DNA of 14,533 nt from Candidatus Micrarchaeia archaeon (GTDB taxonomy: Archaea > Micrarchaeota > Micrarchaeia > Micrarchaeales > CABMGC01): the NCBI GenBank assembly GCA_049976845.1, contig JBMFHL010000016.1, forward strand, positions 1-14,533, read 5' to 3'. A program made the position numbers. Positions 9,001 to 14,533 of the stretch are shown one piece after another. Position 1 is the stretch's first letter. Every line of letters begins with the position of its first letter.

Positions 9001-12000
9001 CACGGGCACGAGCCTCATTACAGTATAATAGCTAATCCCGAAGAACTGCAGTATTGCATACGGGAGGAGCGTAACCCAGTAGAAGCCGTGAGGCTCGCTG
9101 ACAGGCGTATGCGCAGGCCAGCCTGATATGCTTAAATACTGAGGTATTGCAAAATTATTGCTCACAGCTGCCCTTATTACAGAGAAATGGTAAAAGCCGT
9201 CTGGCTCGAAGAAGCCGGCATACTTGTACAAAGGCATCCTGAAATATATGGTAAGCAAAACAATGACAAAGAAAAGCGCGAAGAAGATAATGCCGTTCCT
9301 AGTTTTTGCGAATTTAACAACATAGCTAGTGCTTATGCCCTCTTCTTCCTCTGCTTTCTGCAGCTCCCTCTCGGCGTTGCGGATTTCCTCTTGAGCCTTG
9401 CGCTCCTCCTGCTCGGCTTTGCGGAGTTCCTCCTCCGCTTTGTGCAAGTCGTTTTTAAAATTGTCAGAAGGCTCCATTGAAAATCCCCAGCAAATAAAGC
9501 AACTGATTAATCACTAAACTTTTTTAGTTTATATTTTTATAACCTTCCTTTCAGGAAAAGCAGCAAAGCGTTGCTCAAGCCCTTACAATTTTCCTATTTG
9601 CCTCAAGGTAGTTTAGCGCCTCTTTAACCGAGCCTATGAAAACAATATGCCTGCCATAATCCCTTTCAGGCTCAGGCATGTATATGGAAACTGCTTTTAT
9701 TGCATCCGCATTAACAATCTTCGCCCTGACTTCCTCTTCGTTGATGAACTGCGCGTTGCCTTCCAAATCCTTTTCGCAGTCGCCATAGTATCTTAAATAA
9801 TCATACTTTATTCTGCTTTCGTCAAAAAAGAAAATAATTCCATATTCCCTTCTTTCTGAGAAATACTTCGCCCTCCCGCGCGACGCTGTAAGCTCAACAT
9901 ACGTGGTTTTGTCTCCCCTTTTTGCAAGCAGGTCCTCATGCCCTTTCGGATAATAATCAGCATCAGCAGACTTCTCTACAGTTCTGTCATTTTCAATGCC
10001 TTCGAGCCTTTCAATAAGCTTGTCCTTTGAATCGAACGATTCGCCGCGGTAGAGCAGATGCGTAGACTCTATCTTAGCCCTAAGCAATTGCTCAAATTCG
10101 TCAATCCTCTGCTCGAGCTCAGCGCCCAGTATGTTCATACCAAGCCAGTACTTAATCAATTCCTTCTTCTTCAAATCAGCAAAAGCATCGTCTATAATGT
10201 GTTCCAATGCAAGCAGCATGCCCTCCTTTTCGAATGCCCCTTCTCTGCAAAGCTTAGTGTTAAGTTCGCGCATCTCTTTTTCCATGTTGATAATAATTCC
10301 TGTTTTCATATAAATAGTTTTTGCTGCTCTTGCAGATGCTCATGCGCATTTGCTTCAACATTTATAATACATATTGTTAAGAAGAAATTGAAAAAGGAGT
10401 GGAGGCATAGGGAATCGAACCCTGGCCTGCAGAATGTCAATCTGCCATCCTACCACTAGACGATGCCTCCCCAAAGATTCAACATTATTGCTCAATTCTG
10501 CCTTTTATTCTTTACTCTTCTTTTTGTTCTTTCTGCTTATTGCCATTATCTACTCCAATGCAATTGCATAGCCGTCTTTTGCAACAACAGTGTTTTTGAA
10601 AACCGCTTCAGCCTCTTCCTGAAGCTGCTTCGGGCTTCTATACCTGGCGCTTATGTGCATCAATACAAGCATTTTCGCATCTGCCTTTTTGGCAACGCCG
10701 GCAGCTTCTTTTGCGGTTGAATGCTTCCTAAGCAGTGCATGCTTCTTCTCATTCTCTGCAAAAGTGGCCTCGTGTATAAGCACATCCGCGCCGAGCGAAG
10801 CCTTTACTGTATTGGCGCAGGGCCTTGTATCTGTAGCATATACTATCTTCTTGCCGTGCTGCAGCCAAGTAACATCTTCAATCCTTACGCTTTTTCCTTT
10901 CACCTTTATGCTCCCAGTTTTCTCAAGCAGCGAATACATCTCATTTTTTATGCCCAGCTTGCCGCACTTTTCCTTAATAAACCTCCTCTTGTCGTCTTCC
11001 TTGAAAACATATCCGTAGCTCGGTATGCTGTGCTTGAGCCTGAAAGCCTTTACAAGAAAGCCCTTGCCCTTCATAATAATGCCGGAGCCTATGCCCCTTA
11101 TATCAATATTGTATCTTATCATCGCCTTGTCGAATGTTATGAGGCTCATCAGCACTTTCTCGTAGCCTTTCGGCACAAATATAAGAAGAGGCTCTACCCT
11201 GTTATTTAGGGCAAGAGTCCTTACAAGGCCAGCAATCCCTATTATATGGTCTCCATGTGCGTGCGTTATAAAAATCGCCTTTATCCTTGAAATGTTGACA
11301 TCATACTGCATCATCCTCATCTGCGTGCCTTCGCCGCAGTCGAACAAGTAAACATCCCCTTCCCTTACCAGCGCGACGCTAGGCATGCCCCTCGTCTTAG
11401 TTGGAGTTGATCCTGAGGTGCCAAGCACAATTATTTTTATCATGATATCACTATCAACCTTTGATTTTTATCCTTATCCTTTTGTTCTTCAAATCAACAT
11501 CTATAACCTTTATCTCGCCAGTCTCAAATCCCTTCAAATCTTCCAATGTAAACTTCTTTGCTTTTCTCGCATAATCAATTATCTGATTTATCTGGTTCAT
11601 GTTTGCGAATATAATGTCTCCTTTCTTTTTTGCATCCTGCTCGTCGTATTCGAGCGTTTTTATGAACTCTTTCTGCTTCTCTATGCTTGATTTTATAGAA
11701 AGCAATTCCTTCTCCCTGCTTTTATCACTTTCATTTTCCTGCCTCTCCTGCCTTTCCTTCAGGTAGAAATCATCAAGCAGCTCGCTTAGCGTTGCATAGC
11801 TCTTTTCATAATAGCCCTTGTATTTCGCAATCTCAATTATTGAATAGTCTTTGTTGCCTTCAGAATCGTTGTAATATACTCTAGGCTTGTAATTCGAAAG
11901 CACATTCCTGAAATTTGCAATGCCCTCGGCAACGCGCCTCAGGGTGTCTTTTTCTATGGCATTCGCCTTCGCCTTCGGGTCTATATTATTCCTTATCAAA

Positions 12001-14533
12001 ACATCTTCTATATAAAGCGGCCCTATCTCAAAGAGCCTCGAAAGCAGGGATATTATCCTGTCATTTTCAGAAGAAATTGAAAGCACTCTCTCTTCCGCAT
12101 TCCTCTCGTTTATTTCGCTTACGCCTATGGCGCTTCCCTTGGGCTTTGCATAAAGCGCCTTCGGCTCAATTGACCTGTCTTTGTACCTCACCCTAGTATA
12201 GGCCTCGATTATAACATCATCTTTGTCGGTGAGAACGACATTGCCCTTGCCAAGCATCTCGACAAAAAGCTTGTAATCAGAGAAGTCGAAGAGCAGTATC
12301 CTATCGCCATCGAGTTGTTTAACCTCCGCCAGTTTCTTTCCAAGCAGCCTCTTCCTAGCTGACATTGCAAAGGCAGTGGCAGTCTCATGCTCTGCAATAT
12401 AGGAAGTAATATTTATGCTCCTGAGCAGCTTGCAATAAACAGCGTACTCCTTTGCATTCGAAGAGAAAAAGAGCTCGAAGGCGCCATTGCCCATGTCATA
12501 CAATTTCTTCAGATACAAGCCCTCAAGTGCTTTCAATTCCAATGCTATGACGCTCAATTCAACAGAAGCAAGCTCCCTCATGCATTCAGCTACTTCTTAA
12601 GCTTTTTAAGTCCTTCCTCTTTTATTACTTTGGCGAACAGCTCTGTTTTTGATTTTGCATTCTCAGACTGCTCTATTGCAGTGCCTATCTGCACAATATC
12701 GGCACCAGCTTTCAGCGTCTGCCTTAGCAAGTCGTCGGTTGTTATGCCTCCTGCAACTATGTAAGGGACTTCTATTGACTCCCTAACTGCCTTTATCATC
12801 TCTACCGGCACAGGCCCAGAATGCTGCAGCGCCGGATTCGAACCTACGTCGGTAACTATGAACTTGTTGCCGAGCATCTCACCTGCTTCTGCCAGAGCGG
12901 CAGCTATCTTTGGCTTCTCCCTTGGTACAAGGTTTACATCGCCCACCCAGCCTACGGTGCCGCCAGGCGCAACAACAATATAACCCACAGGCAGCGGCTC
13001 TATCCTGAGGTGCCTTATGGTAGGTGCAGCAAGCATCTGCGCCTGTATTATCCAATATGGGTTCCTTGCATTTAGCAATGACATGAAATATATTGCATCT
13101 GCGTACCTTGTTATTGTAGCTATGTTGCCAGGAAAGAGTATAAGTGGCGCATCGGTCTTGTCCTTTATTCCCTTTGAAACATAATCGAGCAATTCACCCT
13201 GTGCGCCTATGCTGCCGCCGAGCAGGACCATGTCTGCGCCTCCCTCTATGCTTGCAACTGCCGTCTTTATCGCCTCGTCAGGCGTCTTGTAGTCGACAGG
13301 GTCAACGAGCATGAACATCATCGCTCCCTTCTCCTCAAGCCTCTCATAAATATACTTCTCTGTCTTTCCAATTTTCACGAAATCACCAATAAACATCTTC
13401 AATTCTAGGCCAATGGAAATTCAATGCTTCTTCGCAAGAAACGCTTTTACAAGCTCGCTTCCTCCTACTTTTATGTTAACCATTGGATTAAAGCCAAGCT
13501 CTGTTTTTATCCTTGTTATGTCTATTACCCTGTCGCTCGTTATGAACCTGAGCTCGTCTGTGTCAAGGCCCCTGCTCTTTGCCACAAGTTTGACTATGAA
13601 CTCGCTCATGTGCTTTGTGGGCCTGGGCGCCTTAAGCTCATCTGCCGCAAGGTCAAACAAATATTCCTGCGTGTAGGATGTGCCGTCTGAAGTATTGTAT
13701 ATCCGGTTTTTGCTTTTGTCATTCATCCTCGCAAGAAGCAGCGCCTGGAGAACATCGTATATGTGTATTATTGATAGGTGGTTCTTGCCATTCCCTATAA
13801 AATAGACCTTCTGGTCCTGCAGCGCCTTGAATATCTTGAAGAATGAGCTCTCAAACCCCGGTCCATACACTGTTGCAATCCTTAGTATTGTAGAAGGCAC
13901 GGTATTTTTGTACCTTTCAACGACATCCTCAGCAAGCATCTTGCTGTAGCCGTATCTATCGCTGGGCTTTCTTTCAGAATCCTCTGTCAATAATTCGTTC
14001 CTCTTTCTTCCATACACATCAATTGTGCTTGAGAAAATAAAGTGCTTTATCCCATACTTCTCGCAGGCGTCGAGCGCATTCCTCGTGCCATCCACATTTA
14101 TGTGCATGAGCTCCTCCGTAGTGTATCTGTATTCGCTTACAGCGCCTGCCAAGTGGAAAACATTATCTGCGCCGTTGACTGCATCGTCAAGCTCCTTCTG
14201 GTTTGTTATATCCCCTATATACGGTATTACCCCTGGGGAGAGCTCGACAATCTGCTCTTTCCTCTTCACCAATGCCCTTACTATATCCCCTTTCTTCATC
14301 AGCGCCTTGACAAGCTCCTTGCCTATCTTGCCATTGGCTCCGGTTACAAGGTCAACCTCCTTCTTTTCTATAACAGGATCAGGCCTCTTCTCTAATTTGG
14401 TCGAATCGGCATCATTTTCTTTTGCTTTTTTGCCCAGCATCTCACGCACTTTTTTTAGCCTTCTTTGCATCCTTTTTCTCCTTTTCTTCTTTTTCAGCCA
14501 GCAGGCTTCCCGCGATGCTCCTCATGTAGCCTT

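Follow-up and report, generated by a model that had tools for sequence, protein, structure and literature searches.

The two halves of archaeal RqcH are encoded by unlinked genes in Micrarchaeota

B.subtilis RqcH, yeast Rqc2 and human NEMF are single chains for which tailing has been tested. According to the consulted parts of a preprint on the B.subtilis protein (bioRxiv 2020.09.03.281279), tRNA is bound by D97/R98 and EIM, and contact with the 50S subunit is confined to the arm tip and NFACT-R, the domain with the DWH motif. The whole RqcH of archaea (family model NF041120, RqcH_arch; 590-670 aa, e.g. P0171 of Archaeoglobus veneficus) has the same domains in the same order as the Micrarchaeota proteins described here. 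Archaeal RqcH is called a candidate in an excerpt of PMC9540759, and the literature searched held no test of tailing by any archaeal RqcH.

A split of this gene family is already known. Podar 2013 (PMC3655853, Table 1 and supplement files 2, 6 and 7) reports arCOG01695, which is COG1293 'Predicted RNA-binding protein', as split in two Nanoarchaeota, with the gene pairs NEQ438/NEQ506 and Nst1_176/Nst1_251. This is the same orthologous group, likewise divided into two unlinked genes; however, it is not named RqcH there and Micrarchaeota are absent from that table. With its 332 aa, NEQ438 would fit an N-terminal half, so that the NEQ438/NEQ506 break may lie at a similar site. In the supplement of Burroughs and Aravind 2014 (PMC4075521), as far as excerpted, NEQ438 (332 aa) and Micrarchaeum UNLARM2_0420 (374 aa) are members of the NFACT family; the word 'split' is absent from the excerpted main text and NEQ506 from that supplement. 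A passage of Dombrowski 2019 (PMC6349945), with Baker 2010 as its reference, speaks of genes being split in Nanoarchaeota and Micrarchaeota. The excerpts of PMC8407392 and PMC9540759 contain nothing on the split, and no paper on RqcH in Micrarchaeota or DPANN was found in the literature searched, which covered few subscription papers. The Micrarchaeota case extends the known one; new are that the split is fixed across Micrarchaeota, that its occurrence at the same site in DPANN is patchy, and that the helix-hairpin-helix (HhH) module was lost repeatedly.

The window, i. e. the whole stretch of 14,533 nucleotides that was analysed, carries the N-half gene together with three neighbours:

10550..11443, minus strand: ribonuclease Z (rnz), 10 bases downstream of the N-half; a neighbour of the N-half only in families f1 and f2
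11454..12581, minus strand: aRqcH N-half gene, 375 aa, with NFACT-N, HhH module, first coiled-coil helix and the M domain through its second beta strand
11457..11510, minus strand: terminal beta hairpin of the M domain; the N-half ends at the turn and the next strand is that of the C-half
11562..11729, minus strand: first helix of the coiled coil (about residues 285-340), for which pairing with the first C-half helix is predicted (interface residues 289-339)
11886..12134, minus strand: HhH module, about residues 150-232, with a weak H2TH match at 186-222
12240..12260, minus strand: E108-M-L-G-K-G-N114, putative counterpart of the EIM loop, judged by its place after the DR motif
12300..12305, minus strand: D93-R94, the DR motif, counterpart of B.subtilis RqcH D97/R98 (tRNA binding)
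12590..13402, minus strand: geranylgeranylglyceryl phosphate (GGGP) synthase, adjoining the N-half directly upstream
13421..14470, minus strand: NAD-dependent epimerase/dehydratase, second neighbour upstream of the N-half

The survey's finding had placed the N-half after rnz. Since the epimerase and GGGP synthase genes lie upstream of it and rnz downstream, all on one strand, the N-half precedes rnz and the reading order is epimerase, GGGP synthase, N-half, rnz. In families f1 and f2 this block was found in 55-58 of 60 loci; within the flanks fetched, none of the 70 others has it. A functional partnership with rnz (tRNA repair after ribosome quality control) was considered and dropped, the block being order-level synteny.

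The N-half matches positions 2-378 of the 645 in NF041120 (E 1e-57, 196 bits), residues 6-368 of human NEMF and Pfam PF05833 (NFACT_N; E 8e-39). Both HhH motifs after NFACT-N are present in the window protein, as indicated by the weak H2TH match and by alignment with whole proteins. The rest of the RqcH_arch model was found in the same genome on two other contigs, the C20 piece matching profile positions 355-495 and the C9 piece 502-644. Together the halves tile NF041120 at 2-380 and about 380-644; what is one chain in whole archaeal RqcH is two in Micrarchaeota. Both have sequence and fold matches to B.subtilis RqcH (7as8, 7aqc), yeast Rqc2 (8aaf) and human NEMF (9gy4, 3j92), with which they have the DR and D-x-W/F-x-H motifs in common; no solved archaeal or split RqcH structure was among these matches.

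For the C-half, a position after secE and a course from C20 into C9 had been proposed, and both hold. Aligned separately, the two pieces cover residues 3-120 and 119-256 of the C-half of a same-genus relative. They abut there without a gap, and the contig ends have 8 bases in common; therefore the C-half of this genome is one gene cut by the assembly, with a length of 264 aa (124+142-2). The gene follows secE in all six same-genus loci tested, five of which have ftsZ upstream, and a secE-like gene is the neighbour in up to 73 of 109 loci, which all belong to close relatives. PF05670 (NFACT-R) is over its cut-off, and a D-x-F/Y-x-H motif, whose spacing suggests that it is the counterpart of the B.subtilis DWH, is kept in 109 of 109 C-half loci (30 from one search and 79 of 80 from another, with genomes that are not all independent). 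The gene had been described as second helix plus NFACT-R. These two parts are there, but the C-half contains more, because its match continues to position 644 of NF041120, where the model ends; NEMF 1000-1037 match with only 3.3 bits, and a match to PF11923 (NFACT-C) was not obtained.

To judge how widespread the split is, 151 genomes from 20 families were compared, assigned to Micrarchaeota by the source labels of the relatives and including the unpublished G029. All 151 have an RqcH_arch match, yet none reaches the full-length cut-off (400 bits in a single chain, a score that neither half attains), as against 4 of 14 control genomes. A further 81 relatives, partly overlapping with these genomes, gave no whole RqcH either; the two tallies together include a second unpublished genome, G178. 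The N-half exceeds the PF05833 cut-off in 150 of the 151, and both halves were found in the same number; in G150, a fragmented assembly of 170 contigs, an N-half was not found. N-halves were fetched for comparison from 130 genomes. All but one end at or just before the M-domain strand, and among the remaining 21 there are 20 with frames of at most 399 codons. The exception is G031: its N frame extends into a gene for a TPR protein rather than a C-half, while a sister genome of the same genus has the normal stop. Nor do the other long stop-to-stop frames hide whole genes, those of G090 and G085 being open upstream only. Within the 109 C-half loci no N-half match was found. In six single-contig genomes the halves are 170-346 kb apart; in 32 hand-listed genomes, 23 have both on one contig at distances of 5.8-924 kb, the smallest in G115. 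The split, reported before for 51 of 51 genomes, is thus fixed across the sampled Micrarchaeota, and the claim of two unlinked genes stands.

An assembly artefact or a decaying pseudogene could be suspected here, given that the assembly consists of 52 contigs and that the C-half is broken over two of them with an overlap of 8 bases only. However, the stop codon of the N-half lies mid-contig, 10 bases ahead of rnz. The same site is found in 20 families, with the distances in single-contig genomes given above, and the motifs are kept at 28-43% identity, which speaks against decay. The distribution, motif and distance data refute this explanation, whose probability we regard as practically nil.

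The position of the break was located on a model of a whole protein, P0128 (pLDDT 95). Here strands 381-385 and 389-393 flank a three-residue turn, which is followed by the second long helix. In alignments to whole proteins, N-halves end on the strand before the turn and C-halves start with Met on the strand after it. On this model the cut falls on a beta-hairpin turn within the M domain, at the coiled-coil arm's tip, where the survey had put it. The coiled coil of two long helices that goes with the M domain receives one helix from each half, and the two are predicted to pair. With the last 125 residues of the window protein and the first 66 of the C20 piece, the predicted complex scored 0.79 against 0.01 for the best of three controls, a mark reached by 116 of 157 solved pairs and 2 of 215 mismatched pairs; the earlier prediction of binding (0.76 against 0.00) was thereby reproduced. 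Runs agree in at least 96% of contacts, with partner pLDDT of at least 85. The predicted interface of about 126 contacts comprises the coiled coil and the terminal strands, N-half residues 367-375 contacting C-half residues 2-16. Since one-chain RqcH and NEMF have been solved, this result may reflect likeness to them, as is usual for halves of split genes.

Covalent rejoining of the pieces, by a split intein or by RNA trans-splicing, would make the two genes yield one chain. There is a precedent in N.equitans, which has a split-intein DNA polymerase and split tRNAs. In Micrarchaeota, however, the N-half ends on its last strand and the C-half begins with Met on the next one, so there is no room for intein halves, and Pfam scans of both halves returned no intein family. 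We regard rejoining as highly improbable.

The two halves differ in how they have evolved. N-halves diverge faster than C-halves, with a median identity of 28% versus 43%. Divergence of the two is correlated (Spearman 0.65, 0 of 2000 permutations, 30 genomes), but this is no evidence of binding because it is expected for any two inherited genes. The HhH module is gone in 19 of the 130 N-halves, from five families. The criterion was fewer than 35 residues over the stretch 150-232 of the window protein, and three of the cases come close to it with 30-34. A FastTree tree from which those columns had been omitted requires seven changes, at least five of which are forced by starred branches; on this tree the module was dropped at least five times independently among Micrarchaeota N-halves. 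One of the HhH-less forms has a confidently predicted fold (pLDDT 93.5) with structure matches to NEMF, Rqc2 and RqcH. DR is found in 126 and ER in 4 of the 130 N-halves, HhH-less forms included.

Faster divergence of the N-half and repeated loss of HhH could mean relaxed function. They also fit the view that the halves are separate factors, which either act independently or come together only at the ribosome. The C-half would then be a solo NFACT-R protein that binds the 50S subunit, and the N-half a tRNA binder that is recruited loosely or has partly degenerated. In B.subtilis the 50S subunit is contacted directly only by NFACT-R and by the tip of the arm, with NFACT-N/HhH unnecessary for binding according to the consulted parts of bioRxiv 2020.09.03.281279. 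Moreover, the excerpts of PMC4075521 describe stand-alone proteins of coiled coil plus NFACT-R in eukaryotes, CCDC25/Jlp2, which resemble the C-half. These coexist with whole NEMF, whereas Micrarchaeota have no whole copy and their C-half appears to continue to the family's C-terminal domain. Against separate factors speak also the strict co-occurrence (150 of 151), the presence of DR or ER in 130 of 130 N-halves even without HhH, the extent of the predicted interface, and that each half has one strand and one helix without a partner in its own chain. This explanation therefore appears unlikely.

What was observed are two separate frames, one break site, no whole copy and kept motifs. Most probably this is an ordinary archaeal RqcH/NEMF orthologue made from two unlinked genes by fission at the M-domain hairpin turn, forming a predicted heterodimer with presumed tailing activity. 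In such a dimer the halves would rebuild the arm non-covalently: the first strand of the C-half would complete the M-domain sheet, and its first helix would lie antiparallel to the long helix of the N-half. The loop would tolerate being cut, as the pieces are held together by the shared sheet and by a coiled coil of about 50 residues. By analogy with B.subtilis and yeast, the dimer would bind split 50S subunits carrying peptidyl-tRNA, with NFACT-R at the A-site finger, the arm tip at the uL11 stalk base and NFACT-N on the tRNA anticodon arm, and would add to the unfinished chain alanine-rich tails that direct it to degradation. Tailing by the split protein is suggested by its homologues. The genome also encodes two eRF1-family genes and Pth2. 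Matched amounts of the halves are not assured, because they lie in separate gene clusters.

The split is not specific to Micrarchaeota. Its wider distribution in DPANN was taken from protein labels and papers, i. e. from protein records without genomic context. Named among the 120 best matches to an alignment of non-Micrarchaeota C-halves are Diapherotrites (4), Altiarchaeales (3), Woesearchaeota (5), Nanoarchaeota (1), 'archaeon' (2) and Bacteroidota (1), the last of which is probably misbinned. Three C-halves that were checked, labelled Altiarchaeales, Diapherotrites and Woesearchaeota, start at Pfam position 369-372 as in Micrarchaeota, and P0438, labelled Nanoarchaeota, has the length of a C-half (255 aa). 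Whole RqcH occurs in DPANN as well, namely in Parvarchaeum ARMAN-4 and ARMAN-5 (587 aa), Nanosalina (632), Nanosalinarum (628) and in P0128, which is labelled Woesearchaeota (649 aa). Because of these whole forms the split is no clean marker of DPANN, and its reading as a clean synapomorphy was rejected.

On a tree of 75 rows the split and whole states require 10 changes, at least three of them forced by starred branches, and a whole clade is sister to split Altiarchaeales inside a starred branch. A single origin of the split was not rejected by the AU test (p 0.119). The whole proteins, including those near split clades, bear no scars of re-fusion, the junction measuring 22-24 residues in 96 of 101. 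We lean towards repeated fission at a permissive loop over one origin.

A more far-reaching interpretation, which we hold tentatively and consider possible but not the likelier outcome, is that one loop of RqcH underwent several independent cuts in archaea with small genomes (Micrarchaeota, Diapherotrites, part of Altiarchaeales and part of Nanobdellota), and that at least five losses of HhH in Micrarchaeota then left a minimal tailing factor that occurs naturally as two chains, of about 290 and 255 residues.

For annotation, the labels 'NFACT RNA-binding protein' or 'DUF814' that pipelines give to these genes can lead to RqcH being scored as absent or partial in a whole phylum that has all its parts. 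For evolution, the sharing of one fission site by several DPANN phyla may qualify as a rare genomic change; its use as a marker would need a proper gene-tree analysis because whole forms occur inside DPANN. For mechanism, the natural break at the arm tip and the repeated loss of HhH suggest which parts a tailing factor needs at the minimum. If the minimal two-chain factor is real, HhH and chain continuity at the stalk-base contact would be dispensable for ribosome quality control, and the separable halves would offer a first test of archaeal tailing.

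The helix-hairpin-helix (HhH) module is missing from the RqcH N-halves of 19 genomes in five families (L146-L156, L159, L160, L203, L204, L219, L221, L222), and has been lost independently at least five times. The HhH-less N-halves retain the DR or ER motif. In some N-halves (L044, L045, L048, L152, L153, L160, L210), most of the M domain is missing as well and the C-terminal end consists of the helix and one short strand. In G031 (contig C2; L162:1-2322) there is no stop between the N-half frame and that of a TPR-repeat protein; in G131, which belongs to the same genus, the N-half stop is normal. 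The two genes may be genuinely fused here, or the joint frame may stem from a mistake in the assembly or the sequence.

Two genomes carry one half twice: G147 the N-half (C29, C9) and G082 the C-half (C13, C19). This may reflect strain mixing (contamination about 2%). Micrarchaeota-type C-halves were also found in records titled Marsarchaeota or Methanothrix (L080, L102, L107, L130, L135). The genomes of the four tested measure 0.6-0.7 Mb and lack a whole RqcH, and thus these titles are probably wrong.

The window also contains:

700-2715 (+), M13 (neprilysin-like) metallopeptidase, 671 aa
2733-3560, 4109-4639, 6501-6908 and 9575-10309, four ORFs of 135-275 aa
7024-9477 (-), multi-pass membrane protein, 817 aa
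10399-10470 (-), tRNA-Val(GAC), directly downstream of rnz

Pfam searches returned no family for any of the four ORFs and no match for the membrane protein, which, judged by eye, looks similar to an STT3/AglB oligosaccharyltransferase with an altered WWDYG-like motif. The M13 metallopeptidase family is commoner in bacteria, and the gene was possibly acquired by transfer.
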